Shown piece after piece: positions 170-64,000 of a stretch of DNA of 64,000 nt. The translations under genes were made by a program, and so were the position numbers. The DNA lies in the NCBI GenBank assembly GCA_026770705.1, contig JANJGN010000034.1, positions 5,952,001-6,016,000 on the forward strand. Reading direction: 5' to 3'. Below the pieces are notes generated by a model. The model had not been told where the DNA came from. It made no database searches and worked only from the letters and a program-made list of their open reading frames with translations. Position 1 is the first letter of the stretch, and each line of letters begins with the position of its first letter. Origin of the DNA: Isurus oxyrinchus (taxonomy: Eukaryota).

Positions 170-199
170 AGTATTTTGACAATTCTTTAACACATCCGA

Positions 200-900
200 A
201 TGACACAAGGCATGGAGGTGCAGCAAACAAACAGGTTGATATTAAGCGACTGCAGCAAGAAAAAAATAGTTGAGCAGCATAAGCATCAAGTGGCGGATCA
301 AAAGTTATGCACATAAATATGAAGAGATGCTTTTTGGCAAAACCAATACAGGAAGGCAAATACCATTATTTCTGTGTGCAACTGAACAGATAAGGAGCAG
401 AATATTTTTGAAGTTGTCGTGAAATATTATAAGTGTACCTATCAAGTTATTCGGATTATTGGGCTTAATATGTGGAGGCGTTCAGCACAAAAGTTGAAAA
501 TTGTGCATAGCCTTTTGAAGCTCAAGTTATGCAGCAGTTAACGTTGTTGCATCAGGTTATCAACATATATTTGGAAGGAGCGACTGATCATAAAGAGGTT
601 GGTGAGGAGAATTGGCAGAATGGTTCCATGTACAAGTGAATTTAACGACCAAGGAACATTGGTCACGAACGTTTGTTTTCCATAGTGAATGGAAGGCTGC
701 GAGGTGATCCATAAGTTAATATCAAGGTTAGGGAAGGGAGAAAAAGAGATCCCGTTCCTGTATGCTTAAGGTACAGGGATGACGAGGACACAATTTTCCG
801 TTTTGTGCACGGGTGATTATAATATGTTGAAGATGTTATCTTTGCAAGCAATACTTACATGCCATGGACGAATAGATAAAAATATTTTTAAAAATTAGAA
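200..900 (+). mobile_element. Decayed CR1-type LINE 3' fragment
   Basis: Remnant resembling CR1 post-RT sequence (ctgcagcaaga...aagtggcggatc...gatgctttttgg); many stops; truncated homologue at ~56565-57010. Confidence 0.6.
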
Positions 901-1269
901 TAGAGGGGGAGGACCTTTGTTAATTAACTCACCATCTAGTAAGTTGCTAAAATAATAGTCATTCAGTAATTTCAAAATGAAATCAGCATGGGCTGATTAA
1001 TTCGACAGGCAGACGGTTATAGTGTTGGAAAACAGGAATGACTGCTTGGCCCTAGAGAATGCCGTATGGGTTCCACCGGCCTTAGGGCATCTGATGCTCC
1101 GGACCTGTGGCCTCAAACCCTCCATATTTCTGTTACTTGCCATCAGAAATGCTCAATGAGTTGTATTAAAGGCTTCACAGAAAATTGGATAAGGGCCGAA
1201 ACTGGAGACACACATCAAGATCGAACTAGTCAAAGGCTTAAACAACGACAATTTCAGCCCTGTTGACCC

Positions 1270-3862
1270 TTCTAAGATAGCTTGACTAAAAACTGGGGGC
1301 TGGTGGCAAAGTGGGAGAGGTATCCAACAGTTCAGTCGAACAGCAGTCATATTTATAATCAGCGATTCACCGTTCCTGTCAAAGGCATGGCAGGGCCATC
1401 AGTCGACAGGCCCAGCCTAGATGGCAGTGCTATAGCGTATGGATGAAAGTGCAATAGGGACCCTTAATACCGTCACATGACATCAAACCAAACATTGCTG
1501 AGGAAACGTCCTGCTGTTTACCTCGTACTGCAGTCCACACCCACCCTTGCAGCTGAAGAATCAGTACTCTTCCATGTTAAACGCCACTTGGAGAAACATA
1601 GAGGGTGGCAATGGCGGACAATTCGCTTCCATCACCAACACGTAAAATGTCTTTGTAGCACCACCGTAGCGTGAGCGATACGAGTGCGAAAGGACATACA
1701 TGAGAGGCTGGATCTGTGGCTACTGGTCAAGGGAGTAAAGAAGAGAGGGAATGAACCACAGGAAACTGCCTGCTGCTGAGGTGTCTGTCCATGAAAAGAA
1801 TCGTTTGCAGTTACCACTGCACAGTCATTGTGGAGACATTGTGGATACCGACCAACTTGTGGCGCCGCATTACCACCGTGCCAAAGAGGATAATGTAGGA
1901 ACACATCAAGCAGGTAAAGCCGAGGTAGTCATGAGTCTATGTGGTCCATCAGCAGAAGCAGAACTGTACTCAATCAAAATGTTTAACCTCATGGCCGGGC
2001 ATATCCTCAACTCTTCAATTACCAGCCTGCCTGGGTATCCAGCCTGGTTCCAAGAAAAATGCAAGGCGGTATTGCAGGAGTGGCACCAAACATGACTATA
2101 AAAGAGGAGGCAACCGGGTAAAGAGACATAGCAGATCCACTTGCGTACCAGACAGCATTAACAGCACTTGATAGACTGAGCGGGGCCATTACAGAATGAA
2201 CAGAACAGATCTAAGCTCTGCAGTGCTGTCACAACCAATTGTTAATTGTAGTGGGCAATTAAATAATCCACTGGAAAAAGATCCACAAATGTCTCCATGC
2301 TTTTTGATGAATGATTGCCAACCATTGGGGCAAGATTTAAGGCTGAAATACTTGCAATAAGTGTTGTGCGGGTGACCCATATTGGCCCCCTCCCGAGATG
2401 CCCGGCATTGTGGTTGCCAGAGTTCCGTTAAATGTATTCGTCCCACGTGATATCATGAAATGGCTGAAGGAACTGGATGCTGCAAAGGTTATGTGCACTG
2501 ACAAAATTCTGGCAATAGTATTAAGGATGTGAGCAAGACCTTTTTTGCGCCCTTAGCATGACTGTTCCTTTATGGCTACAACACTGGCATATTGCTGCCA
2601 AACTAGTGACTCGCCCAGCTATGTATTGTGCACACAAAGCAGGGCAATTCTAAACCAGCCACTGATCGTCCCATCAGGATACTACAATCATCAGTGAATT
2701 GAGGGAAGTGTCAGGATCTGCTATCACGCGGCACTTGCTCAGCAATTAACTGTTCATTGCTCAGTTTGGGTTCCGGCAGTGTCCTTCAGTTTCTGAGCTC
2801 ATCGCAAACTTACTTTTAACTGGGACAAAAGAGTTGATCTCCAGTGGTGAGGTGAGAGTGATTGTCCTTGAAAACAATTTGAATTTGGCCGATTGTTCCA
2901 TCAGGGAACACTAGGAAAAATTGGAGTCAATGGGAATCACGGGGAGAAATCTGCGTTGGTGGAAGTCATACCTAGCAGGAAGAAAGATTGTTCTCGTTGT
3001 CGGAGGTCAATGACCAACAGTTACAGGGCATCATTGTAGGAGTCCTCAGGGTAGAGCTCTAGGCCTGATTTTTCAAGGAACTTCCTTCCATCATAAGTTC
3101 AGAAGATTGGTATTTGCTGTTGACCGCACAATCTAAAGCACAATGCAGGACGCCTTAAATAAGGAAGCAGTCAATTTCTAAATGCAGCAAGAGAAGTGCC
3201 TAGCAATGACAACCTTTATTTCGACATTATAAAACCATCACCTTATGACAATCAATGGCAATGCCTACACAAACAGATCAGGGGCTGGGAACACTGCAAA
3301 TTGGAAATCATCTCCTGAGGACTGAAAGCTTGTCAACTAGCCGCAAGGTACAATTAATCTTTTTGATTGAATACTCCTTAGTTGACTCGATGTAGGTAGT
3401 TCCAACAACACTCAAGAAACCTGACAACACCCACGGCAATACAACCCACTTGATTGGCATCCCGTCCACGCACATTCACTGCATCCAGCACCGACGGACG
3501 GTGCCATCAGTGAATAATATCTGCAAAATGTACAGCAGGAACTAAACAAGGCTCCTTTGGCAGCAGCTTCCAACCCCACGTTCAATGCCGACCAGAAGCT
3601 CAAGGGCAGCAGGAATCAGGGAACAAAACAACTTTAAAGTTTCTCGACAAGTCACTCATTATCCTGACTTGAAATATATTGTGATTCCTTCACTGTCGTA
3701 GGATCCAAATGATGGAAATACCTCGCTAACAGCACCATGGAAGGTCCTACTTCAGATGGACTTCAAGCAAGCAGTTCACCAACTCCTTCTGAAGTAGAAT
3801 TAGGGATGGGCAGTAGATTATGTTCTCATCAGCGATGCCCAGATCACATGAATCAATAAAGA
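1270..3862 (+). mobile_element. Decayed non-LTR retrotransposon (CR1/L2-group LINE) with endonuclease-RT remnant and 3' end
   Basis: RT-like remnants (cagtttgggttccggcag = QFGFRQ; gtcctcagggtagagctctaggcc, a PQGS.LGP-like motif); 3' end tagggatgggcagta...catgaatcaataaa; frameshifts and stops. Confidence 0.8.
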
Positions 3863-5009
3863 AGGACAAAATGTACGACATCCAGTCAATGTCACGCTGA
3901 TTTGCGAATGCTATAAGGAAATCAGATTCAGTTTCTCATGTATAGCAACAATAACCACACTTTTAAATTCTACATTGCCTGACTCGTATTTTGGAATATT
4001 CCGCGTTTGTAAAATATATTTGCAGTTCCTTCTGTCCTTTGTAAGGGGATATTGATATGTCAGTTCATACTCTCAAGCCAATAGTGCTCTGATTGATTTC
4101 TTCTGGATTTTTTTCTTTTGCCAGGGTGCATTTAAATTCCATGCCCAGTTGTGGACTCCAAATAGGAAAAAAAATAATAACTCAAATTATGCAGTTAAGT
4201 TTTGCTGTCCATATATCTGTGAAAGCTTTACATGCATTGCGTGCAGAGTGCTACTATTTGTGCAATTTGCTTGAACCAAACATCAATTACGTAATTCGTT
4301 TCTCCAGTTGCTGATTTTGGATCATACTTAGATATCGATGTTGTTTCTGACTTCAAGATTATGTGCACACATAACAAAACAGAGGTCCCAGAGAAGACAT
4401 GGTAACATGATATTAAAACTGAGCGATATACATTTTCTGAAAAATTGGCATGGCCATATACAAAACTGATGTATGAATGGTGAGCTGACAGGAGTCATTA
4501 CAATTGTGCAAGGTTTTCTGATGGAGTCCAGAACTTGGGCCAATAAATCAAATTAAGTCACGAAGCATCATTGGGAAATTCTGAGGATATATCCAGTAGC
4601 AGGATATTTATAATGCGGAATCAGTGCTACAAGGTGCACTAATGTAAACGATAAATGTCCATATAATGGCAAGTGCACGAGCGAGAAAGATGTTGAGCGA
4701 CATTCTGATTGGATTCGTTGAAGCTAGTCGTCAGGGATCATGTGGAACATAAGAACAGCAGCAGCAATTGGATGGGATAAAGGCCTGATCCATGGTATAA
4801 AATGGATACAAATCTTAGAAACAATAAACAGGAGAATTCAACAAAATGGGGCCAACCATAAAGCATGAGGCAGGATGTACTTGACGGTCCCCTATCAGAA
4901 GGACGTTTGTCAACATCCACTGCAACAATGATTGGACCTAGTGCACTAATAGTCAACGCACATAATTTGATTTTAATTGCTCAGTTTTACTGTGACACGC
5001 CATCTAAAA

Positions 5010-5455
5010 TATGCATTGAAATAATGTCGAAAATTGACAACCTATCTAAGATCGAACATTCCTCCTCCCTACAAACTTGAGCAGAAACATTTAGTATGAG
5101 ACTCTAATACACCTGCGGCAGAGGACTGCACTAATGGAATTGAAGCAATTTGATGGACACCTTTAGCTGAGTCACTGTCTGTCCTGTTTTTTTCTTAATT
5201 CGATTCTATGTTTCTGCTGAGGGAGTAAGAGAAGCTATCGGAGTTGCCCTGTGCAAAATGTAATCCTCCATCAATGTCAGAAAACGGTGACTAGGCCAGA
5301 GCTTATTATTGCCTGTGCAGCTGATGGTGAGCGAACTGGATGCAATTTGCTCTGCATTACAGCATTTCTTCAGAAGAATGACGTTGGCTACGAAGCATTT
5401 TTGAAAGCCTAAAATTCATGATAGGCGCTGTTGAAACGCATGTTTTGTTTTCTTC
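5010..5455 (+). mobile_element. Decayed tRNA-derived SINE (DeuSINE/SacSINE1-like); homologues ~32190-32640 and ~58050-58500
   Basis: Recalled family motifs: aaacttgagcagaaa...gactgcact core and 3' tail ttggct...aagcattttt...tgataggcgct...gcatgttttg. Confidence 0.55.
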
Positions 5456-5463
5456 TCTTGCAG

Positions 5464-5490
5464 AAAGAAATCTCGGGGAAAAAGATTCAG
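5464..5490 (+). CDS. Microexon A1, 27 nt (xRNLGEKDS)
   Basis: ttctcttgcag|AAAGAAATCTCGGGGAAAAAGATTCAG|gtaaac; homologues at 32651 and 58511. Confidence 0.85.
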
Positions 5491-8400
5491 GTAAACAAGA
5501 TAATGTATTCTGCACTGCCCTTTCGTGCCAATGTTGGCTCAGCCTGTAACGGTTTCAATATGAGCTTGGATCTCTTGTTTTCAAATGTAACTCGAAATCC
5601 TGATCACTAAGACTTGGCTGACACTGCTGGTTGTCAATAATGCAAGAGTGCCGACCTGCCAGGCCTGTCCTCACCAAGGCGAGATGCTAAAGGAAGATAA
5701 TAATTCCCCACACACCAAGGCATATTTCGATAAACATTTAAGAGTTGCCTCAAATGTATTGGTATGACTGACATTCAAATCAACAGTGATTCATACAGAA
5801 ACCGTGTTTCCTATTCAATTTCTACGTGTGAGAATTGTTGTTTCACTTCCTACATTACAGCAACAACTACAATTCGCAAGAGTCCAATATGGGAGGAAAA
5901 TTTATTTGACATTTTCTGAATTCATGGATGAAATGATATAAATCAAAGCCCTTCATTGTTCAGTTTCTGAAGGTATGCTAATGAGTCTCTTTGCGCTGGA
6001 ACTGTTCCGGCAGCAGTTAATGCTGTAATGAAAATTTTTTTGCAGAAAAACAAATGAAAAGGAATGATAAAATGTTCCTATGCTCATTTTCAGAAATAAA
6101 TGATCTCCAGACTAAACTTCAAAAATGCGGTAGGTATTTAAAATTTGGAAAACCGATGACCTAATTGGAAAAGAATTCGATTTTTACGTGGAAATTATAG
6201 AATTGAACTCATAGCAACGGATAGCCTCCGACACCCGGGGACACTGAATTGGATGAAGTGATTCTGAAAAGAGCCTGATTGAGTAAATGCTGGCAGGATT
6301 TCAGCATGCAGATCTTTAGCTGCTTCCTGAACTGTTGGTCACATTTCAGCAATGATCATTTATAAGATAAAATCTCGATCAGTGAGATTAGGAATATGTA
6401 AGATTGGGTACAGTTAATGTAGTTTTTTATTGCGTCGGCCACAACAATTAAGGCGTTGTGGAGAGTTCGGCTAGAGATGTGTTCAGATTTCTCAGCTCTC
6501 CGCACGTGTATCTACAGGTAAGGAGTACTGTGGGTGCGACAAGCTATAGCTTGAGTGCGTTCTGAGTGAGGTAGCCTTGAGGAGGCTGACTATAGCTGAG
6601 TCATGGAGAGAGATATCCGCTCTTTGTGTGGCCGGCTCTGGCTGAATTGGGAAATGGGTGTGTTTGGCTATGTGTGAGCCTGCTTCTATGTGTGATCCGC
6701 GATGATTCACATCCTGTATTTACTTTGTAATGATATGTGCTGGCCTTTATGCGTAAAACCATGTATCAGCGAGGTCGAATGCAGCTGAGCTTGAGGAAGC
6801 AGGACATCTGTATTATTCTGTGGAATCAACTTAGAGGTCCAATATGATCAGGGTTCATAGACTTAAGTCAGCTATGTGCGATTTTGTGTATCTTTGAGGT
6901 GTAGTATTTAAGTGTGTAACATCCTTTGGTGCGGAATGGCATAGGAAGCATAATTTTTATTTGAAGCCTAATTTGAATGAGGTCAAGCATATGCAATATG
7001 GATAAGTATGAGCTGATATAAATGAGATCAGATCGTATTGAGTTGGAGAAGTGGCAAGTTCAGCTTGGGATAATGTAGCCTATGGATGCAGTTGCACCTA
7101 TGAGAATTACGGTCATGTGGAATCAACTTTTCCCGAAAGATGATGTGAGTGAATTTTGTAATTGTCGATGTTCGGAATGGGTATGTTTGAGTACAGAGGA
7201 TATTGCTTTTGTTTCAGGATGCAGAAAATGAATTGGGCATTGGTAATTTATTGTATGTTTGAGGATGGTAGAGCTTAGTTTTGCAATAGTTACATCGCAT
7301 ACGGGATTGAGATCAGGTAGGAGTTATATCCTGTTTGTTTGGTGTTACGCACGAATGAGATACAGACTTTTCTCATTTATGATTGAACCTGTGGGGGCCC
7401 AGGCCGGGCAGAGGTCGGAAATGAATGTAGATTCTCCTAAAATATTCAGCAGGTGGGGCAATACTTCTGGAGAGAGGAACAAACGTTGAACTTTCAGGTA
7501 GGTGAGCCTTTCCAGCAGGCAGAAAGGGTCACATGGCACAAATTTTGTTAAAGCACAGGAGTGTCGTAGCCAGTATATATGGTTATCCAACAAAATAAAA
7601 GCAGGTTATCTGACCTTTGCAACATTGCGTTTTTGTGAGTGTTGGTAGGGGGCGGTGGGTGGGTTGGCTGTTAGGGGGAGGTGGTGGCTAATTGGCTGAT
7701 GTATCTCATACATTACGTTTTTGGTTACAATTAAAATATTTGTCATTGCGAAATGCTTTGGAATTGCTCTGGTTGTGACGTCAATGAACAAGCACAATGC
7801 TCTACTTAAATTAATACTTGCACACTATTTTAATTTTAATGGCGACATGCTTGCAACATTGAAGCTAAGGACTGGCTTAGCTACATTCAATGTTCACTAA
7901 ATAAAAATTTCCAACATGTGCGGGGCTTCAAATATTTCAGACTCAGTGATTTTATCTTTCACCCGTCGACAGAAGAGAACCTAAAAGCGATAGAGAAAGG
8001 TACTGAACTTAAGCACATCTTGCATTAAAGAGATGACAATTACTTTTGCATTTGATAATTGATTCTATCAGCCGTTCTCCAAAGCGTCTTATTATAAATT
8101 ATTTCAAAAGCAATCAACTGAGCAATCCTGCATGAAGCAGTTTGGCAGAATATATGTGGAGAAAATGATTCGTGGGAGGCATCAAACCCAGCGGATTCAT
8201 AAATAAAAGCATATAATGTAGTATGGTAACTCCAATATGGAATTCATGAACTTTATCTTTATACGGAGAATGTCCAACGTCCGCTATTTGGAAAATGTTG
8301 GAAGTGAATCAAGATAAATGCACGTGAGAAAAAGATTGAAAAGATGATATTAATAGCGTGAAAGGAAGTAGGGTGGAAGGAGTACCATGTGAAATATAAA

Positions 8401-53400: not shown

Positions 53401-56400
53401 ACAATGTTGTGTTGTGTGCACATTTATGCACGCATCAGTATGCTTGATATAGCAACAGTTAAAATTTCAATCCACCTACAATCTTGTGCCTTATATAAAA
53501 CGTCAACTGTTTCAATGATTCCACAATCCTCCTGTTATCGTCATGCCTTGACAGAAACAAAGCTAGAAGGCAAAGAAAAAGGTAGGCAGTTAAAGGATTC
53601 GCTGTTTTAAAAGGCAGACATTAAAGATTGAGGAACATACCTATGCGTCTTTTGTTTCTTGATTAACTTGTCCAAAATAGCATTTATCATTAATAATCAG
53701 AAGATCGGCTGAATTTGGTAACGGGCTATAAAGGGAGAAAATCTTTCAGCTTGAGGTCTCAGCCAAAATGAAGAGCCAGTAAGACAAGAGTTGAACATTA
53801 ATACAAAACTAACACTCAGGAGGAAAGAGTTAATCCATTAAACGATTAGAATGTGGAATTCGCTGCTGCATGATCCTTGCTTGTACCGAATTTCGTTGCA
53901 TTTTTTTAAGGTGGAGGACACCAAGATCTCACGGAAGTTCAATTGACGTGACTCTCATGGAGTAAATATCGTGTCGTCCACAAGAAAATTTTGGTTCAGC
54001 TTTGTCAACTCCAGATGAATGGATCATGTGCATTGTTAACCAAGCTTAACTCGTGCTTGCAGTCTGGCTTAATGTCTATCACTTCCAATATATGGTGTAG
54101 CCTTCCCTTGAGGACATGTTCGGGCTTTGGCTCCTCACTTCGGAAGGATACATGTTCAGCTCTAAATATCCAGACTGTGTTCCCTCAGGCTGTTTGCACT
54201 CGTTTCAGGGGCAAGTGTGACTGAAATTTCGAGTTGTGCTTTCTCTGTCAGCCAACAAGCTGAATGAAGTGTGAGCTTTAAGGAATGCTGTGTAGCAAAC
54301 GCGGCACAGTTCATGCACTAAATAACAAATCCGACTGATCACTCTTAGCAGAATATTAAAGTGGAATATCTCAAATCTGCATATAGAGGCTATGTAAACA
54401 ACATATACACACACAAAAACATTTTGCCTAATTAAACAAAGGTGCTACGAATTACGCCGAAACAGTTCTAGGTTAACACAAAGTTTAATTTCTCCAACAA
54501 AGAAAATTCACGAATGAAACCATGCCAATACCTTTTGTAAAACGGAGACATTTGTCACCAATAAAATGCGGTTAGTGGAGGAGAGTCCAATAATTCTAGC
54601 TGCATTCCCCTACTCAAGCTCAGTCTCTGACAGCAGTTTAGGTTCCAGACCCGATTGTTAAGAGAATTACTGGGCCAGTTTGATTCCTGTCGGGGAATGG
54701 CGGTATAGAAAATGAAAGTCTTCTGTAATCTGGAGGAGGAAATGTAACTGATAACCTTGACAAATGCCATGATCTTTATAAACCAGTTGCTCTCTTTCTG
54801 TCTCAGAATTGAATGACATTCTGAAGAAGTGCAGTGAGTATTCCAAGAGCCGACAGCCAGTAAGGTGTAAATTTCCCGATTGATTATAAAGCCTGTACTG
54901 CGGAAAGAACTAATCCGTGGACGAAACATGTGCCTTGGGGGACGACATATATTCGAGTGACGGCATTAAAGCACATCCCCAAGGCACGAGGAGAAAATGT
55001 CTGAAAGGAAAGTGCGGTGTTACATTCTTCCCTAAAGATGCACTGAATGTTTTGTCCTCGCAGATTCTAGCTTTTTTGCTGTGACTCAGGAGACAGAACT
55101 TCCAACTTGTGGTCAGAAGGTTGCGAATACAAGTCCAGAATCAAAAGTTGAGCACACGCGCAAATGCTGACATGTCAGTACAGCCCTCAGGCAGCAATGC
55201 ACTGCAGGATGTTCAGCCGTTTAGTCCATAAAACGAGGCGAGGTCTGCCCTCGAACTTGGATGTAAATGACCCCATGCCACATTTGACAGAAACGAAGGG
55301 AAGTTTCAACCGATGTCCTGGTGAATAATTACCCCTGAAATAAACTTCACATCACAAGGGTGTTTCGGTTGTGTTGTGATCCCTGGTGACTCGGGCAGAA
55401 CAAGTATCTTTGCCGAAACAGTTCAGTCAGAGTGATCATTATATCACCAGCTTTAGGGTGGCAGAGGAATCATACGGACTATTGACAGATGATGCCTAAC
55501 ACAGAAAATTGCGATCACATCATTTTGGTGGGAAGGATGAGGCGAGGCAATGGGAGAGAAAGTCTCAAAATCTAAATGGGTTTCACAGTATTTACCCCTG
55601 GATGTCAATGAGCACAATTTGCTCAGGGTGACAAGGCAGGTTGGATGGGGGGTTAAAAAATGTAAACCTGTCCCTAAATTTAATAAAGACGGTCATATAG
55701 CACAAATACATGTAGGTTACAATAAATGTATAAAATACTGGGCGGGCCTCAACTCGAGAATTGTTTCCAATTCGGGGCAACATTCTTGAGGAAACGGTGT
55801 AGGCGTTATTGAGCGTGCAAAAGTATTTTTTAATATTAATTCCAGGAATGAGGAGGTTCACTTACGTAGGTAGTTTGCACAGGTGTTCTTAACCTTGGTG
55901 ATCAGAATATTAACGAATTATCTGATAGAGGTGAACATAATCATTAGGATCCAGGCGAGAGTAAACATGGGAGAGTTGCTCCGTTGGCACGAACGGTCGA
56001 AAAGCAGTATAGACCGAGTTAAGTTAATTTACATCATAAATAGGGGTGCCATGAGAGAGACATTTACTTTTCCAGCGAGAGCTTAACATTTGGAATACAC
56101 TGCTAATGATGTCGTGGAGGAATGTTCTATAGACGTTTTCAACAGAGCATTAAATTATTATATCAAGAAGAGAGTTACTTCGGATGAGTGTTACTTGGAA
56201 CAGCGGGACAGTGGCATGAAATAAAATTAATAGAGAGATCTGGCACCAGCTCGCCGTGGATGGTCTCTCTCTCTCTCTCTATCTGTCTGATCCCCTCTCT
56301 TCCTCTCTCTCTCTCTTTCTCCCTCACTATATGTTATATAGCTGATTAGATAGAAAATGAGACACATGTATAGATAGTTAGATTGATAGTTACAGAAATA

Positions 56401-59400
56401 GATAGATAGATATAAAGATTGATAGATTTATAAATAGATGGAAAGATAGATAGTTAGATAGATAGATAGGTAGATATTTAGATAGAATAATAGTTGATAG
56501 ATTGATAGACAAATAGATAGATAGCAGTTGGGCCTGACAGTATAGGACAATTCTTGAACATTCCTGAATGACACAAGGCATGGTGGTGCCGTAAACAATC
56601 AGTTTTATAGCAATCAATGGCAGCATGACCTAAATAGTCGAGCAGCATAGGCATAAAGTGGCGGATCGAATTTAATGCACATAACTCAGAAGAGATGCAT
56701 TGTGGCAAAACCAATAGAAGAGGGCAAATACCCTTACTGAAACGACCCTTTAGTGTGCAACGAGATAGATAAGGAGCAGAATCTTTTTAAAGTCGTCTGG
56801 AAGTATTATAAGTGTAGCCAGCAAGTTATTCGGATTATTGGGCCTAATATGTGGAGATATTCAGCACAAAAGTAGAAAAGTGTGCATAACCTTTTGAAAC
56901 TCTGGTTATGCAACAGTTAACATTGTTGCTTCCATTTATCAACATATATTCGGAAACAGCGACTGATCATGAAGAGTTTGCTGAAGCAATTGCCAGAATG
57001 GTTGCATTGATGTACTTTGGAAAAATCACTGTTTGTAAAATCAGCAATATATTTGCAATTCCTTTTGCATTTTGTATGGGGAACGGTATTTGCCTGTTAA
57101 TGCGATCAAGCCAATAGTGCTCTGATTGATTTCTTCTGAAAATTTTCTTTTGTCAGGCTGCATTTAATTTCCATGCCCAGTTATGAAATCCAAATTGAAA
57201 AACAATAACAATAACTCAAAGCATGCAGTTACATTTTGCTGTCCATATATCTCTGACAGACTTTTCATGCAGTGCGGCAGAGCATTACTATTTGGCAGTT
57301 TGCTTAAACCATACATCGATTACATAATTTGCTTCTCCCGTTGCTGATTTTGGATCATACTTAGATATCGATGTTGGTTCCGGTTTCAAGATTATGGGCA
57401 CACGTAACAAAACAGAGGTCCCAGAGAAGACATGGAAACAGGATATTAGAACCGAGCGATATACATTTTATGAAAGATTGGCATGGCCATCTAGAAAACT
57501 GAAGTCTTAATTGTGACCTGACAGGAGTCGTTACAATTATGCAAGGTTTTTCTGATGGAGTCCAGAACTTGAGCCTCTAATTGAAATTAAGTCACTAAGC
57601 ATTTTTGGGAAATGCAGAGGATATATCCAGCACAGGATATTTATAATGCGGAATCAGTACTGCAACGTGCACTAATGTAAATGCCAAATTTACATATAAT
57701 GGCAATTGTCCGAGAGAGGAAGCTGTTGAACCACATTCTGATTGGGTTAGTTGCAGCTAGTCGCAGGGGCTCGTGTGGATATAAGAACAGCTGCAGCGAC
57801 TGGATGGGATGAAGCCCTGATTTCATGCTATAAAATGGATTTAAGTCTAAGAAACAATAAACAGGAGATTTCAACAAAACTAGGCCAACCATATAAAATG
57901 AGGCAGGAGCTATTTGAAGGTCCCCTATTGGAAAGACATTTGCCAAAATCCACCGCAACAATGATTGGACCTAGTGCGCTAAAAGTCATAACACTTAATA
58001 CGAATTTAATTGCTTAGTTTTACTGAAACACGGGATCTAAAATCCGCATTGGAATAATGGCTTAAATTGACAACCAATCTAAGATCGAACATTCCTACTC
58101 CCTACAAACTTGAGCAGAAAGATTTATTCTGAGACCCCAGTGCACCAGCGGCAGAGGACTGCACTGATAGAATTGAAGCATTTTAATGGACACCTTTATC
58201 TTTGTCACTGTCTGTCCTGTGAATTGGCGTTTTTTTTTCTTAGTTCGTTCCTATGGTTCTGCTGGGGGAGTAAGGGAAGCTAACAAAGTTGCGCTGTCCA
58301 AAATTTAATCCTGCATCAATGTCAAAAAAATGGTGACAACGCTTCATCTTATTATCCACTTTGGGACTCTATGGTGTGCAAACTGGTTGCAATTTGTTCC
58401 GCATTACTGCATTACTACTGAAGAATTACATTGGCTTCAAAGATTTTATGGAAGCCTTAAATTCATGATAGGTGCTGTTGAAACAAAAGTTTTGTTTTTC
58501 TCTCTTGCAGAAGGAGATCTCGGGGACAAAGATTCAGGTTAGCAACATAGTGTATTCTGCTATACCCTTGTCGTGCCAATGTTGGCTCAGCCTGTAATGC
58601 TCTCAATATGAGCTTGGATCTCGTGACTTCAAATGTAAGTCGAAATCCTGATCACTAGGACTTCGCTGACACTGTTGATCACCAATAGTATAAGAGTGCC
58701 AACCTGCCTCGTGTGTCATCTCTAAGGCGAGATGTTAAAAGAAGATAATATTTCCCCAAACACCAAGGCATATTTTGATAAACATTTAAGGGTTGCATCC
58801 CATGTATTGGTATGACTGACAATCAAATCAACAGTGATTCATACAGAAATGATGTTTACTGTTCAATTTATATTGGTGGGAACTGATGTTTCATTTCACA
58901 CTTGAAAGCAACAGGTACAATTCTCATGAGACCAGTATGGGAGGAAAATGTATTTGACATTTTTTGAATTCATGGATGAAATGATACAAATCAAGGCCCT
59001 TCATTGTTCAGTTTCTGAAGATATGCCAATGAATCTGTTTGAGCTGGATTTGTTCCGGCAGCAGTGAATGCTGTAATGACCTTTTTTTTTAGAAATCTAA
59101 ATGAAAGTGACTGATAAAATGTTCCTATGCTCATTTTCAGAAATAAATGATCTGCAGACTAAACTTCAAAAATGCGGTGTGTAAATATTTAAAATTCAGA
59201 AAATCGGTGAGCTAAGAGGAAAAGAATTAGATTTTTACGTGGAAATTATAGAACTGAACTCCCAGCAATGTAAAGCTTCTGACTGCCCGCGACCCTAAAT
59301 TGAATGAAGTGCTTCTGGAAAAGTGAGTGACTAAGTAAGTGCCGGCAGGATTTCAGCATGCAGATCTTTAGCAGCCTCCTGAAATTCTGGTCACATTTCA

Positions 59401-61047
59401 ATGATTATCAGTCGTAAAATAAGAGCTCGATCGGTCAGATTAGGAATAAGTAAGATTAGGTACAGTTTTTGCCGTGTGTTGTTTCGTTCGGCCACAACAA
59501 TTAAGCGGTTGTGCCGAGTTTGGCTAGAGGTATGTTCGGATTTGTCAGCTCTCTACACGTGTATCTCCAGGTAAGCACCACTCTGGGTGTGACCAGCTAT
59601 GAATGGGATCCGTTCTGAGTGAGGTAGGCTTCTGGAGGCTGAGTTCAGCTGAGCTGGTGGAGGGAGAAGTTCGGTCTGTGTATGGTCGTCTCTGGCTGAA
59701 TTGGGAACTGGGCGAGTTTGGCTATGCTTGAGCCAGCTTCTCGGCGTGATCCACGATGATTCATATCCTGTATTTATATTGTAAATTATAGTTGCTAGCC
59801 TTTATGTGTAAAACCGCGTATCAGCAAGTTCCAATGCAGCTGAGCATGAGGAAGCATGACATTGGACTTACTCTATGGAATCAACTTAGAGATCCAGTAT
59901 GATCAGGCTTCAAAGCTTGAGTCAGCTATGCTTAATTTTGTGTATCTTTGAGATCTAGTCTTTTAGTGTGCAACATCTATTGGTGCAGAATGCCATAGGA
60001 AGCATAATTTTTGTGTGAGGCATAATTTGAGTGAGGTCAAGAATAAGCAATATGGATAAGTATGAGCTGATATAAATTAGATCAGATAGTGTTGAGTTGG
60101 AGAAGAAGCAGGTTCAGCTAGGGATAATGTATGGTATAGATGCTGTCAAAACAATGAGAATAACGGTTATGTGAAATCAACTTTTCCTGTGATATGGTGT
60201 CAGAGAATTTTGTAACAGTCGAAGTTCGAAATGGGTACCTTTGAGTATAGAGGGTATCACTTTTGTTTCAGGATGGAGAAAAGGAATTGGGCATTGATAA
60301 TTTATTCAATGTTCGAGGTGGGTAAGACTCAGTTTTACAATCATTACATCGCATATGGGATTGAGATCTGGTTGGAGTTACAAACAGTTTGGTTGGTGTT
60401 AGGCACGAGTGAGAGACAGTCTTTTTTAGTGTATGATTGGACCTGTGTGTGACCAGGATGGGCAGAGGACATATATTAATGTAAATTCACCTGGAAATAT
60501 TCAGTAGATCGAAGCCATATTTCTGGAGCAAACTGGTGCAGTTTCAGGTCGATGAGCCTTTTCAGCTTGCAGAAATGGTCACATGGTATTTTTTTTTAAT
60601 GCATAGTGGTTTTATAGCTAGTATGTATGGTTATCCACCAAAATAAAAGCAGGTTATCTGGCCTTTGCAACATTGCGTATTTGTGGGTGGTGCTAGGGGA
60701 CGGTGGGCGGGTTGGCCGGTAGGGTGAGGTGGTGGCTAATTGGCTGCTGCATCTCATACCTTACGAGTGTGGTTAGGATTAAAATGTTTCTCTTTCAGAA
60801 AGGGTGTGGAATGGCTGTGGTTGTGATATCAATGAACAAGTACAATGCTCTACTTAAATTAATACTTGCACACTATGATAATGAAAACGGCGACATGCTT
60901 GCAGCATTGCAGTTAAGGACCAGCTTAGCTACATCCAATGGTCACTAAACAAAAAATTCCAACATGGGAGGGGCTTCAATTATTTCAGAATCAGTGATTT
61001 TATCTTTCACCCTTCGACAGAAGAGAACCTAAAAACGATAGAAAAAG
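5464..61047 (+). CDS. Partial multi-exon gene: 31 phase-1 microexons (15/27/36 nt) encoding a long cysteine-containing coiled coil with a 130-aa repeat; both ends lie outside the window
   Basis: Every exon is flanked by AG (usually after a pyrimidine tract) and GT, and is a multiple of 3 in length. Exons recur at homologous positions in the duplication units. The joined 870 nt has no stop and shows 3-4 hydrophobic periodicity. Confidence 0.88.
5525..5955 (+). mobile_element. Decayed DeuSINE-like SINE; homologues ~32715-33140 and ~58575-59005
   Basis: tRNA-like head tggctcagcc...ttcaaat, core ggctgacactgc, tail atataaatcaaagcccttc. Confidence 0.5.
6094..6129 (+). CDS. Microexon B1, 36 nt (EINDLQTKLQKC)
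   Basis: ctcattttcag|AAATAAATGATCTCCAGACTAAACTTCAAAAATGCG|gtaggt; 35/36 identical to both other copies. Confidence 0.9.
7973..7999 (+). CDS. Microexon C1, 27 nt (EENLKAIEK)
   Basis: ctttcacccgtcgacag|AAGAGAACCTAAAAGCGATAGAGAAAG|gtactg. Confidence 0.85.
10180..10990 (-). mobile_element. Decayed CR1 LINE 3' fragment; homologues ~37290-38120 and ~62670-63460
   Basis: Minus-strand fragments YYLNGERLQNSE...GFLVHETQ (10639..10842) and LSYVERLDRLVLYSLGFRRVRGEFI (37437..37694), typical of the CR1 ORF2 C-terminus. Confidence 0.8.
12540..14230 (+). mobile_element. Decayed CR1 LINE ORF2 fragments; homologue ~39600-42010
   Basis: RT motif remnant GSPQGYLLSPLIFNILFNDFDCGVRKSISKYVA (13655..13870), matching CR1 GVPQGSVLGPLLF..INDLD.G....ISKFADD. 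Confidence 0.8.
14702..14728 (+). CDS. Microexon D1, 27 nt (ELYDLQQKC)
   Basis: tttacttttccttag|AGCTCTATGACCTTCAGCAAAAGTGCA|gtaagt. Confidence 0.9.
16177..16203 (+). CDS. Microexon E1, 27 nt (KADLDQKDE)
   Basis: aactcttgcag|AAGCTGATCTCGACCAAAAAGATGAGG|gtaaag. Confidence 0.85.
16330..16740 (+). mobile_element. Decayed DeuSINE-like SINE; homologue ~43860-44270
   Basis: gaggttg...ctagttc head remnant; tttgggagctcgctctgtgtaaaat central motif; gtcctgagaatgtgacaggc tail. Confidence 0.45.
16889..16915 (+). CDS. Microexon F1, 27 nt (EFGKKIGEL)
   Basis: tttcttttacaaaaatgcaag|AATTCGGCAAGAAAATTGGAGAATTAG|gtgagt; weak AAG acceptor but strong donor; conserved in unit 2. Confidence 0.78.
   Translation, partial: NSARKLEN
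17830..17965. mobile_element. Older Penelope-like terminal fragment (homologue ~45360-45500)
   Basis: gaaaatgctggtaaaacgtagctggtctgggagcatctgtg resembles the arm at 29390-29440. Confidence 0.6.
18478..18492 (+). CDS. Microexon G1, 15 nt (ENVKK)
   Basis: tttcctttaccgattcacag|AAAATGTAAAGAAAG|gtatgt. Confidence 0.85.
19081..19116 (+). CDS. Microexon H1, 36 nt (ELDSCQDTVKDL)
   Basis: ttccctccaccttgcag|AGCTAGACTCCTGCCAAGATACCGTAAAAGATTTAG|gtgagc. Confidence 0.9.
20077..20091 (+). CDS. Microexon I1, 15 nt (DKFKK)
   Basis: ttgatttgtttcatag|ATAAATTTAAAAAAG|gtaagt. Confidence 0.87.
20100..21510 (+). mobile_element. Decayed RTE-clade LINE 3' part; homologue ~47650-49060
   Basis: HPKQLLLSKISEDGLTRGGQRAILRDVLKSNMKK (21072..21305) resembles the RTE C-terminal LPKQLLYGEL..G.R.RGGQ.KR..D.LK motif. 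Confidence 0.7.
21870..22750 (-). mobile_element. Decayed CR1-type LINE 3' fragment; homologue ~49400-50290
   Basis: Minus-strand remnants resembling the CR1 3' region (LKVDLMG...; RVIRF.NA...); many stops. Confidence 0.55.
22890..22925 (+). CDS. Microexon J1, 36 nt (ELSDCQQAVKDL)
   Basis: gaatttcag|AGCTAAGCGACTGTCAACAAGCTGTTAAAGACCTAG|gtgagc; paralogous to exon H. Confidence 0.88.
23353..23379 (+). CDS. Microexon K1, 27 nt (EEKLNSKDK)
   Basis: aatcccaaacag|AAGAAAAACTCAACTCAAAAGACAAAG|gtacct. Confidence 0.82.
24988..25023 (+). CDS. Microexon L1, 36 nt (EIIKCQESLKDS)
   Basis: tctcaccattttag|AGATTATAAAGTGCCAAGAGTCTTTAAAGGATTCAG|gtggga. Confidence 0.87.
26005..26031 (+). CDS. Microexon M1, 27 nt (ETKLKGKEK)
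   Basis: catgccttgacag|AAACAAAGCTGAAAGGCAAAGAAAAAG|gtagcc. Confidence 0.82.
27251..27277 (+). CDS. Microexon N1, 27 nt (ELNDIALKC)
   Basis: ttatttctgtcttag|AATTGAATGACATTGCGCTGAAGTGCA|gtgagt. Confidence 0.9.
27515..27790 (+). mobile_element. tRNA-derived DeuSINE-like SINE 5' part; homologue ~55075-55350
   Basis: gtgactcagtag (A-box-like), gtcagaaggttgcgaattcaagtc (B-box-like), ttgagcaca...gctgacac...gtctgccctc...ggacgtaaatgaccc. Confidence 0.65.
27800..28660 (+). mobile_element. Decayed CR1 LINE 3' fragment; homologue ~55360-56230
   Basis: gcctcaactagagaattgtttccaattctg (RPQLEYC.QFW-like) and downstream CR1 3' motifs. Confidence 0.65.
28678..31046 (+). mobile_element. Duplicated copy of the same LINE, 5'-truncated and interrupted by a Penelope-like insertion
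   Basis: ORF fragments AQFGFRQ (29860) and VPQGGVLGPIILSCF (30151); colinear with 1769-3862. Confidence 0.82.
29382..29632. mobile_element. Penelope-like pseudo-LTR inverted pair (about 99-bp arms) with target-site duplication
   Basis: Arms 29383-29481 and 29495-29593 are near-perfect reverse complements around a 13-nt spacer; flanked by ctggattcagcaaa (29368-29381) and ctggatttaccaaa (29633-29646); absent at the homologous site ~2480. Confidence 0.75.
32651..32677 (+). CDS. Microexon A2, 27 nt (KGDLWDKDS)
   Basis: tttttctctcttgcag|AAGGAGATCTTTGGGACAAAGATTCAG|gtaaac. Confidence 0.87.
33279..33314 (+). CDS. Microexon B2, 36 nt (EINDLQTKLQKC)
   Basis: ctacattgtcag|AAATAAATGATCTCCAGACTAAACTTCAAAAATGCC|gtgagt. 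Confidence 0.9.
35157..35183 (+). CDS. Microexon C2, 27 nt (QENLKAVEK)
   Basis: tttcacccttcaacag|AAGAGAACCTAAAAGCGGTAGAAAAAG|gtactg. Confidence 0.85.
42483..42509 (+). CDS. Microexon D2, 27 nt (ELYDQQQKF)
   Basis: ctacttttccttag|AGCTCTATGACCAACAGCAAAAGTTCA|gtaagt. Confidence 0.88.
43720..43746 (+). CDS. Microexon E2, 27 nt (KADLDQKDA)
   Basis: aactcttgcag|AAGCTGATCTTGACCAAAAAGATGCGG|gtaatg. Confidence 0.85.
44418..44444 (+). CDS. Microexon F2, 27 nt (EFDKKIGEL)
   Basis: acaaaaatgcaag|AATTCGACAAGAAAATTGGAGAATTAG|gtgagt. Confidence 0.78.
   Translation, partial: NSTRKLEN
46003..46017 (+). CDS. Microexon G2, 15 nt (ENAKK)
   Basis: tttactgattcacag|AAAATGCAAAGAAGG|gtaagt. Confidence 0.85.
46628..46663 (+). 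CDS. Microexon H2, 36 nt (ELGTCQDSVKDL)
   Basis: tctctccaccttgcag|AGCTAGGCACCTGCCAAGATTCCGTAAAGGATTTAG|gtgagc. Confidence 0.9.
47626..47640 (+). CDS. Microexon I2, 15 nt (DKLIK)
   Basis: gatttttttcacag|ATAAATTAATAAAAG|gtatgt. Confidence 0.87.
50430..50465 (+). CDS. Microexon J2, 36 nt (ELSECQQAVKDG)
   Basis: gaattacag|AGCTAAGCGAGTGTCAACAAGCTGTAAAAGACGGAG|gtgagc. Confidence 0.86.
50883..50909 (+). CDS. Microexon K2, 27 nt (EEKLNAKDK)
   Basis: catcctgaatag|AAGAAAAACTCAACGCAAAAGATAAAG|gtacct. Confidence 0.82.
52536..52571 (+). CDS. Microexon L2, 36 nt (EILKCQESLKDS)
   Basis: tctcaccattttag|AGATTCTAAAGTGCCAAGAGTCTTTAAAAGATTCAG|gtggga. Confidence 0.87.
53555..53581 (+). CDS. Microexon M2, 27 nt (ETKLEGKEK)
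   Basis: catgccttgacag|AAACAAAGCTAGAAGGCAAAGAAAAAG|gtaggc. Confidence 0.85.
54807..54833 (+). CDS. Microexon N2, 27 nt (ELNDILKKC)
   Basis: ctctttctgtctcag|AATTGAATGACATTCTGAAGAAGTGCA|gtgagt. Confidence 0.9.
56263..56525. repeat. (TC)n followed by imperfect (GATA)n microsatellite
   Basis: tctctctctctctctct... then tagatagataga... arrays read directly. Confidence 0.95.
58511..58537 (+). CDS. Microexon A3, 27 nt (KGDLGDKDS)
   Basis: tttttctctcttgcag|AAGGAGATCTCGGGGACAAAGATTCAG|gttagc. Confidence 0.83.
59141..59176 (+). CDS. Microexon B3, 36 nt (EINDLQTKLQKC)
   Basis: ctcattttcag|AAATAAATGATCTGCAGACTAAACTTCAAAAATGCG|gtgtgt; its only difference from B1 is synonymous. Confidence 0.87.
61021..61047 (+). 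CDS. Microexon C3, 27 nt (EENLKTIEK)
   Basis: tttcacccttcgacag|AAGAGAACCTAAAAACGATAGAAAAAG|gtactg. Confidence 0.85.
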
Positions 61048-64000
61048 GTACTGAACTCATGTTCTTCTTGCGTTAAAGTGATGCCATTTGGTTTTGTATG
61101 TGATAATTGGTTCTTTCAGCCGTTCTCCAAAGCAGCTTATTATTAATTATTTCAAAATCTATCAACTGAGCAATCCACATGAAGGAGTTTGGCAGACTAT
61201 ATGTGGAGAAGATGATTCGTGGAAGGATCCCTAGGGGATTCATGAAGAAAAACATATAATGTAGGATGGTAACTCTCCAATATGGAATTCATAAACTCTA
61301 TCTTTATATGGAGAATATCCAACTTCTAGCTATTTAGCACAATGTATGGATGGAAAGCTAGATAAATGCACGTGAGAAAAAGAAAGAGAAGATGATCTTA
61401 ATTTCGTGAAATGAAGTAGGGTAGATGGAGTACTGTGTGAAATATAAATGCCATTGGGTGGAATACCTGCAAAATGGCCTCTTTTGTCTCTGAAAATATA
61501 GTACAATGTTTCCATTTTGCGTGATGTGAAATGGGTATTACCAAATTTAATGTCCAATACACACTCAGCTGATTTAACAATTCGCAAAAAGTTTGATCAC
61601 TGAGTTAGGCATTAAGAGTCATCTTAGAAGTGGAAAGACGTGTAGAGGGGCATCGATTCAGAAAGATTTACTGACTCCGTGAAGCAGCATCTGAATTCAG
61701 TTGCAATATTGTAGGAATTAAAACAAGGTGCATCAAGTAGCCAGAATTACATTTCGGAGACCTCAGGTGAAGAAAGAGATTACACAGCCAACGAAGGCAG
61801 AGGCTATTGAGGAATTTGGAACAAAAAGAATAAATTAGCACTTTAAAATCAAGGCATCACTTTCATTGGAACGTCCTATATTGCTGTTGAGGTTACTTGA
61901 ATGACTGAAAGTAATTTTCGATTTGTATTCATTATATTGAATTGCATGAGGTTTGCTGCACAGCAACATGACATTTCGCCCAGTAGGCCCAATTTGACAT
62001 GGATTCTCTGCTCAGGGAGCATCGTATCCGACGATGTCGGATTGCAACTGGGTCAGAATTTGGAAATAGTGGAATTGTTTTTAATTGCACGAAGAAACTT
62101 GGTTCAAAACAGTACAGAGTTAATATTTTGATATCGAACAAGCACATATGCACTACAGAAGCTGGAAATAAATACATTGATGAAATGGGAACTTTCAGAT
62201 TGTAACCAATGGCAACGAATGGGCAGACTTTGTTTTCGTTTGTGCACAAAACAGACGATGATGTGCTTGCCCTAATGGCTCATCAGGCCGATGAAAAGGT
62301 TTGGTACTTAAAATGTAAAGAAAATTCTTCGACTTGCAAGGTAAGTAAGAGAGCGTACTTCAAAGCAGAATTAGACAGAAAACGTTAAGCACAGTTCTGT
62401 GTCTCCAGGCACCTGATGTGCAGCCCATGTTTCAGCTCGTCTTCCTGCAGTCAAAGCAAAACAACCACTCATGCACCCTATTGTGAATTTAGAGAACCAT
62501 TGCTCACACAGTGAAAGATGACACCGTGGAATTCGCTACATTAATTATTGATTATTCTTGGCTCTTCTACCAACTGCAAACGTAAACATACAAACACAGT
62601 AACTAGGGCCAGGGTTAATTCAGTTGCCCCTTCAAGTTTGTTCCGCCATTCACTAAGACTACAAGTGATCGGATTGTAACCTCCTGCCTACCCACGATGA
62701 CCTTTCACCCGTGCGTTATTCATTAATCTAACTAGTTCTCCTTTACCATAACTAAACACGCTGCTTCCACTGCATTTAGAGGAAGACAGTTCCAAAGAAT
62801 CTCAGCCTTCTGAGAAAAAAAATCTTCACACCAATATTTACAATGAGTGACACCTTTTTTTTTAAATGGTAACCCTTAGTTCTAGAATCTCCCACAAGAG
62901 GAAATATCCTCTTCACTTTCATTCTGTCCATATCCATCCTAAACACAAGAGCATACTTGTCAAACTGTCTGAACTTTTGTCATAAGATAACCCGACAATT
63001 CCTGCTAATGGACTTCACTGTTTCTAATGCATTTGCACATGTCCTAAAATAAGCAGACCAAAAAATGTACGCGGCGCACAAGATATGGGCTCACCAGTGC
63101 CCTATAGAAATACAGGATACGTTCTCTGACTTTGAGTCAATTCCATTCGCAATGAACGATACAATTCTAAAGCTTTCTTAGATGATTGCTGATTTTGCAT
63201 ACTCGCCTTTTGTGGTTCATGCACTAGGAAACCCAATCTTTTCCGGAGCATAGAGTTCCGCAAACTCTCACCATTTAGATAATAAGCTTTTTTTTTCATA
63301 ATCCTTAACAAAATGGACAATTTACATTTTCCTACTTTATACTCTATTTGCCTGGTCTTTGCACAGTGACTTACCTATCGATTTTGCTTTCTAGCCTCCT
63401 CACGTTTTCCCCATAACTTAGCTTCCTATCTACTTTTCTGTGGTCAGCAAATTTAGCAACCACAAACCTAACTAATTACTCTGTTTCCAAACCTCATAGT
63501 TGTATCCATCTGTGAAATATCCTCTCCAACGTCTTCTTAACGTAAAATACAGCTCTTACTGAAATCTACCTATTATTTCGTTCATCCCTCATTCTTTTAA
63601 ACGTTTTCTAAAATGTCTTTTAAGAATTCGGACCATTCCAAATTATTGGTCTTTGTTCAGACCGTGCAGTTGGTAAAGCTGAGTTATCGAAGCCAGAGGA
63701 AAACTTATAATAACTGTCATAAGTTATAATTTTGAGGGATATGTTTATCATGCGGCCATACATGGAATAAAGAGACCCCTTGTTCTCGAAAGGTTTTATA
63801 ATCAGCTAAAGGAAACCTCTTATTAATTTGCACACTTTAAATATATGCACGGGGCTACAAATTACTACGATCATAACTTTTAACACATTCCCAAACTAAT
63901 ACCCATTCAGGCAACATGAACTAAAAGAATTAGCCAGGCGGAACATTTTACGAATTGAAAATGAGGCTATTTTCTCTTTGGTTACTGTCGAGACAGTTGG

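Follow-up and report, generated by a model that had tools for sequence, protein, structure and literature searches.

A 26- to 28-kb tandem block of symmetric microexons in Isurus oxyrinchus that probably extends a predicted coiled-coil rod

A stretch of Isurus oxyrinchus DNA that repeats itself every 26 to 28 kb raises the question of whether the repeat lies inside one gene, each copy lengthening the same protein, or forms an array of separate genes. We analyzed the whole stretch, a window of 64,000 nucleotides. Self-BLAST showed that positions 178 to 64000 form a tandem duplication with per-block identities of 75 to 87%, and self-comparison of the whole window gave no long inverted match between distant regions. 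The three 26- to 28-kb copies (U1 to U3) are 81 to 83% identical and carry 31 microexons altogether. In global alignments, identity was 82.8% for U1 and U2 (26,224 columns), 82.9% for U1 and U3 (6,819 columns), and 81.4% for U2 and U3 (6,765 columns). Exon A recurs with periods of 27187 and 25860 at the three positions that an earlier note on this DNA had given; for the other exons the U1-U2 period is 27184 to 27781, differing from exon to exon because of intron indels.

Exons were located by a splice-site scan and by reading of the whole window and were then mapped across the copies (Table 1). All 31 (14 in U1, 14 in U2, and 3 in U3) are flanked by AG and GT, are in phase 1/1, and measure 15, 27, or 36 nucleotides. 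From A to N, the lengths within a unit are 27, 36, 27, 27, 27, 27, 15, 36, 15, 36, 27, 36, 27, and 27 nucleotides, which sum to 390 nucleotides (130 codons), or 1.4% of the unit. Type-1 exons of 9 or 5 codons alternate with type-2 exons of 9 or 12 codons. Splicing the 31 exons in order yields 289 codons; one frame is free of stops, and the other two hold 34 and 19. NAGNAG-type tandem acceptors occur 3 nucleotides into exons A2 (32654) and A3 (58514) and also at C, E, and K; their use would drop one codon and keep the frame. The A3 donor (58538-58543) differs from those of A1 and A2 at +3, with a read-through stop after one codon, and the B3 donor is also altered.

Table 1. Units, unit-spanning introns, and microexons in the window
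Feature	Position	Strand	Remarks
Rest of probable N0-A1 intron	170..3985	+	Matches N-A introns; assignment presumptive
Unit 1	3986..31169	+	14 microexons A1-N1; borders arbitrary (circularly permuted repeat)
Unit 2	31170..57011	+	14 microexons A2-N2
Unit 3, partial	57012..64000	+	Exons A3-C3; window ends after C
N1-A2 intron	27278..32650	+	5,373 bp
N2-A3 intron	54834..58510	+	3,677 bp; TC and ATAG microsatellites at 56264-56524
Exon A1	5464..5490	+	27 nt, type 1
Exon B1	6094..6129	+	36 nt, type 2
Exon C1	7973..7999	+	27 nt, type 1
Exon D1	14702..14728	+	27 nt, type 2; paralog of N
Exon E1	16177..16203	+	27 nt, type 1; paralog of A
Exon F1	16889..16915	+	27 nt; flanks conserved but acceptor weak; the exon of lowest certainty
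Exon G1	18478..18492	+	15 nt
Exon H1	19081..19116	+	36 nt
Exon I1	20077..20091	+	15 nt
Exon J1	22890..22925	+	36 nt; paralog of H (24/36 nt)
Exon K1	23353..23379	+	27 nt
Exon L1	24988..25023	+	36 nt
Exon M1	26005..26031	+	27 nt
Exon N1	27251..27277	+	27 nt; ends TGCA; consensus donor
Exon A2	32651..32677	+	
Exon B2	33279..33314	+	
Exon C2	35157..35183	+	
Exon D2	42483..42509	+	Core Leu and Cys of D1 replaced
Exon E2	43720..43746	+	
Exon F2	44418..44444	+	Weak acceptor
Exon G2	46003..46017	+	
Exon H2	46628..46663	+	
Exon I2	47626..47640	+	
Exon J2	50430..50465	+	
Exon K2	50883..50909	+	
Exon L2	52536..52571	+	
Exon M2	53555..53581	+	
Exon N2	54807..54833	+	Ends TGCA
Exon A3	58511..58537	+	
Exon B3	59141..59176	+	
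Exon C3	61021..61047	+	

Between U1 and U2, exons are identical at 354/390 positions (90.8%) versus 21,034/25,473 (82.6%) for introns (p = 7e-6), and splice flanks at 325/361 (p = 1e-4). The translated products share 106 of 129 residues, and pN is 0.084 against an intron rate of 0.174 (p = 5e-6). The U1/U2 dN/dS ratio of 0.61 is not significant (Fisher p = 0.17), nor are the values of 0.45 to 0.61 overall; splicing constraint may account for part of the exon conservation. At intron rates, the chance that all 28 splice dinucleotides would survive is 8e-6, subject to ascertainment, and the 390 exon nucleotides hold no indel, versus 8.4 indels per kb elsewhere (P = 0.04). These values bear on the possibility that the repeat is a decaying duplication or an assembly artefact of which one copy is used. 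The modest dN/dS ratios, substitutions at core positions in U2, and an assembly gap at 12-169 are what such a history might leave, but 31/31 exons are intact in sequence, splice dinucleotides and exon lengths are kept, and the copies differ by 17 to 19%, too much for a false duplication of alleles or reads. We find this account hardly credible.

A scan of U1 and U2 for conserved symmetric microexons returned 14 plus-strand candidates versus 1 on the minus strand; the 14 comprise 12/14 exon classes, an alternative acceptor in H, and one candidate in repeat DNA. In a single-copy scan, partly circular in that these very exons had served to train its composition model, 29/31 exons ranked among the best 33 out of 2,234 candidates; no further exon of the same type appeared (best new score 5.7, versus ≥8.5). 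F1 and F2 scored at background there because their acceptors are weak. Exon F is 26/27 identical between U1 and U2 and lies inside an 82-bp stretch that is 95% conserved (16849-16930 and 44378-44458), which makes it a candidate regulated exon. It is almost devoid of a polypyrimidine tract, and a read-through stop lies two codons into the following intron in both copies. The intronic stretch 120 to 200 nucleotides 5′ of exon B (5888-5972, 33103-33156, and 58936-59020) is 94 to 95% identical in the U1/U3 and U2/U3 comparisons and is a possible splicing element. The B-C intron has a near-perfect donor without a partner acceptor, kept in 3/3 copies (6517, 33706, and near 59570).

Exons N1 and N2 both finish with TGCA and run in frame into the next exon A, as the earlier note had seen when it proposed one gene that multiplies a 14-exon, 130-residue module. 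The 14-exon, 130-codon anatomy stands as described; the single-gene part draws its support indirectly, above all from a likeness between the N-A and D-E junctions. Among the eight 27-nucleotide classes, N and D are reciprocal best matches (17.0/27), as are A and E (17.3/27, with K close at 16.0 to 16.5), and only the D and N classes end in A. The 26-mers over N-A match D-E at 17 to 20 of 26 positions, versus a mean of 8.4 to 9.5 across 28 other junctions. These matches indicate that N-A and the internal D-E junction share one ancestral junction, so that a unit border would be a mere point in a continuous repeat. Moreover, the alternation of exon types continues across unit borders, and each of the 14 intervals is bounded by a conserved donor and a conserved acceptor. 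In our preferred explanation, the window covers a central part of a single large gene on the plus strand, with a rod domain built from symmetric phase-1 microexons. It is probable, judging from the evidence as a whole, that one gene spans the units and that N is spliced to the next unit's A, in which case each unit adds 130 residues, or ~19 nm.

Alternatively, the units could be distinct paralogous genes arrayed in tandem, with terminal exons hidden in one of the long intervals or transcripts ending by intron read-through. Chicken BG genes form tandem arrays and use read-through into introns to reach early stops (PMC4046983 and PMC5938342). In both copies here, read-through meets a stop within 2 codons after F and K and within 16 codons after N, and two AATAAA motifs lie 839 to 878 nucleotides past N. 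However, 10 AATAAA are conserved in U1, which by our estimate is about the number expected from 83% identity, and the pair past N presumably lies in LINE sequence. The introns are LINE-rich and include an RVT_1 fragment; two of the top three Atlas clusters are chordate, a weak pointer to a vertebrate source, and the types of SINE and LINE suggest a shark. A search of all intervals for a conserved ATG exon with a signal-like core, a membrane segment, or a domain or terminal exon found none, in keeping with the absence of start or terminal exons that the earlier note had reported within a unit. Conserved splice sites without a partner number four acceptors and four donors, and none makes a convincing exon. 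When 18 open reading frames or stretches were compared with Pfam for hidden domain exons, a weak RVT_1 match was the only result, and the 255 open stretches conserved between U1 and U2 had no clear codon bias among the rows inspected (outside ~7.5 to 21.2 kb). The window holds no GC-rich island (no segment scanned exceeds 50% GC), no Rfam match, and no tRNA. Introns of 3.7 to 7.3 kb leave room for a short first or last exon that is not conserved; the N2-A3 intron, however, spans only 3.7 kb, all of which aligns to repeat-rich intron DNA or to microsatellite. We consider an array of separate genes very improbable. Both ends of the protein lie outside the window.

A single gene might instead use the units as alternatives, each transcript taking one unit or a mixture of exon pairs, so that duplication would diversify the rod and not lengthen it. 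Every exon is symmetric, so any skip keeps the frame; type-1 and type-2 exons can be combined freely without loss of register; and exon F combines a weak acceptor with highly conserved flanks. We saw no feature that would enforce exclusion, however; the introns measure 417 to 7,299 bp, and in each of the three copies no site is stronger than the acceptor of exon A. Such alternative use is very improbable, and serial splicing of N to the next A remains our preferred reading. Finer changes in length, if any, would then come about through exon-pair skipping.

Self-BLAST also matched positions 178-629 to the N2-A3 intron (56546-57007) and 1768-3986 to the N1-A2 intron (28677-31170). With N-A intron DNA thus preceding A1, one more unit is likely upstream of the gap. 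The gap (158 N) sits where the N2-A3 intron has its ATAG microsatellite (56370-56524).

The spliced product is predicted to form a coiled coil. Hydrophobicity has a period of 3.51, with a power of 8.4 versus a maximum of 2.0 in 1,000 shuffles, and each 130 residues contain 37 core positions. The a positions hold Leu, Ile, and Val, and the d positions hold Lys (11/37), Cys (10/37), and Leu (6/37). Successive exon pairs encode 21, 18, 18, 17, 17, 21, and 18 residues, and the fourth codon is Leu in all five 27-nucleotide type-1 classes. Each unit has three stutters and two stammers, a net of one stutter, and thus corresponds to 18 heptads plus one net stutter. No random exon order reached the observed heptad value (0/1,000 shuffles), while 976/1,000 shuffles that kept the alternation did so. 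Any alternation-keeping order fits the heptad, and heptad continuity alone is therefore not proof of the N-A join; the predicted exons do show a modular grammar. Joined in series, the exons would encode one uninterrupted parallel coiled coil that is 290 residues and 43 nm long or longer. Because core residues are lost in D2 and J2 of U2 and Lys occupies 11/37 d positions, the rod would be irregular. The helical rise is 0.1485 nm per residue, which puts each 130-residue unit at ~19.3 nm by arithmetic and agrees with the 19 to 20 nm per unit suggested earlier.

Cysteines are concentrated at the core: 10/12 occupy d positions, the other two fall at register breaks, and 10/12 are still assigned to the core when Cys is unweighted. 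In two-stranded coiled coils, a d-position Cys can join the chains through a cystine (PMC2116092). This capacity to link chains favors a disulfide-stapled stalk that is extracellular or lumenal, a location to which we give an even chance. No N-glycosylation sequon occurs in the 289 residues and Cys is also conserved in BG cytoplasmic tails, so Cys does not fix the location; a BG-like cytoplasmic tail is possible though less likely, and some other location is less likely again. As a weaker part of the proposal, the d-position cysteines may staple two chains into a stiff spacer or stalk, which might keep a head off an anchor, both beyond the sequence in view.

How the locus grew can be read at several levels. 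The sequence shows nested growth, in which an exon pair gave rise to blocks (G-H/I-J and C-D-E/M-N-A among them) and these to the 27-kb unit, itself duplicated at least twice and probably more often; every copy retains splice sites and frame. Kinship among the exons of one unit is still visible, but the introns between them can no longer be aligned, and the inner repeats are therefore far older than the 27-kb unit. The unit copies are themselves old, judging from their divergence: intron K2P distances are 0.199, 0.198, and 0.218, copy-specific differences number 480, 601, and 621 across 6,769 columns aligned three ways (a nearly star-like pattern), the longest perfect match between copies is 45 bp, and identity in 1-kb steps is 0.78 to 0.86 throughout, with no gene-conversion tract seen in that scan. 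For dating we took 0.10 substitutions per lineage and the rate given for the epaulette shark, 7e-10 per generation (PMC10587355); the resulting ~1.4e8 generations was not credible and was rejected as a date, and we retain only "old."

The earlier note had further suggested that unit number could vary between individuals, and the age of the copies speaks against this. Recurrent unequal crossing-over in humans typically involves >95% identity and perfect segments of 300 to 500 bp, although some events occurred on matches of <50 bp between repeats 5 kb apart (PMC2583991). With copies ~20% diverged, near star-like, and sharing at most 45 bp of perfect match, copy-number variation between individuals is unlikely, as is this locus as a source of individual length differences, and within the species the number of units probably does not vary. 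A ruler acting within the species, as the note's wording would allow, is likewise unsupported. By analogy with nebulin, in which the number of repeats differs between vertebrates, including sharks (PMC7754682), a difference in unit number between species is plausible.

Two known kinds of gene architecture resemble the locus in part. As in chicken BG tails, coiled-coil heptads come from many tiny phase-1 exons (the first codon is split 1+2 in both), and the hydrophobic fourth codon and conserved Cys are also features of BG tail exons. The BG coiled-coil tail is described as made of tiny exons with conserved Cys and an exon number that differs among genes (PMC5938342). BG tail exons, however, are 21 nucleotides long (a few are 18 or 24) and encode one heptad each, whereas 0/31 exons here have that length; those of 15, 27, and 36 nucleotides form obligatory pairs, several with a stutter or stammer, and the duplicated unit is a 27-kb, 14-exon block, unlike in BG. 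No Ig-V, membrane, or B30.2 exon of BG or butyrophilin type was found within the window's units. The locus was not assigned to the BG/butyrophilin family, as it lacks the 21-nucleotide exons.

Like the nebulin triplicate, the locus has a multiexon block repeated head to tail with the frame kept across block borders; segmental duplication in titin is a comparable intragenic block repeat. The NEB block comprises 8 exons and 10 kb in three copies inside one gene, lengthens a rod in frame, and comes with a ruler hypothesis (PMC9109913). Similarity between the NEB blocks is high, and their number differs from person to person, whereas the units here, at 81 to 83% identity and K2P distances of 0.198 to 0.218, are not the near-identical blocks suited to recurrent copy-number change. 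The unit is also 2.7 times longer in DNA than the NEB block with only 390 coding nucleotides, and it encodes a coiled coil in place of actin-binding repeats. The locus was not filed under the nebulin type, its blocks being old and diverged. Considered by analogy, the architecture combines a BG-type microexon coiled coil with a nebulin-type intragenic block repeat, each kind already known.

Tetherin and PLVAP provide a functional analogy alone. Tetherin (BST2) is a Cys-linked parallel coiled coil that serves as a spacer (PMC9599465), and core Cys in a coiled coil recurs here (10/12 at d), with disulfides that are putative. Tetherin has ~180 to 220 residues, few exons, and conserved N-glycan sites, whereas the present product has at least 290 residues, at least 31 microexons, and no sequon; neither the N-glycan sites nor the short few-exon ectodomain of tetherin/PLVAP is found. 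An N-terminal membrane anchor, a GPI signal, and MVB12A-PLVAP synteny, further marks of that group, would lie beyond the window. The locus was not filed with tetherin and PLVAP.

Searches for relatives used profiles of the exons. The type-2 exon profile found no relative among 105 candidates; its control, E values of 0.04 to 0.14 on the window's own product, was poor, so its negatives are weak. The single hit of this profile in 1.84 billion representatives, a bacterial tandem-repeat protein matched mainly in intron-derived columns, was rejected. The H/J/L profile (control E value of 5e-9) gave nothing among 42 candidates, all of them proteins of 71 to 2000 residues, and two hits in the PDB with E values of 1.4 and 1.6 that are not meaningful. 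The exon-profile searches revealed no homology to BG/butyrophilin tails, with only 12 informative columns usable. A LINE fragment from the window found no relative either, so coverage of this lineage in the collection may be thin. A protein longer than 2000 residues or outside the collection would escape these searches. Literature listings that covered a minority of subscription journals showed no paper on such a gene.

The locus is best regarded as a countable record of a long coiled coil built by nested exon duplication, in which the exon grammar (pairs of 9 or 5 with 9 or 12 codons) writes stutters and stammers into the rod. Its old, intact blocks permit a direct test of selection on rod length across species. 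One may also imagine a cartilaginous-fish gene missed by annotation that encodes a disulfide-stapled stalk of at least 60 nm and acts as a two-scale genetic ruler; as a joint claim we hold this to be doubtful. In such a ruler, coarse length would be set by the number of 27-kb blocks and differ among species, and fine length by skipped type-1/type-2 pairs, with frame and helical register kept; annotation would have missed the gene because coding DNA makes up so little of the locus, in pieces of 15 to 36 nucleotides. Should the gene prove to be unannotated, it would hint that in cartilaginous fishes a class of large genes made of microexons escapes standard pipelines.

Two insertions are assigned to U2 alone. 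An insertion of ~265 bp at 29380-29647 has two inverted arms that are 86% identical over 218 bp and forms a head-to-head SINE-like dimer with related copies at 45360-45478 and 17867-17925; it is younger than the duplication. An A-rich insertion of 718 bp (39845-40562), whose open reading frame has no Pfam match, occurs only in the C-D intron of U2 and is probably a LINE fragment.
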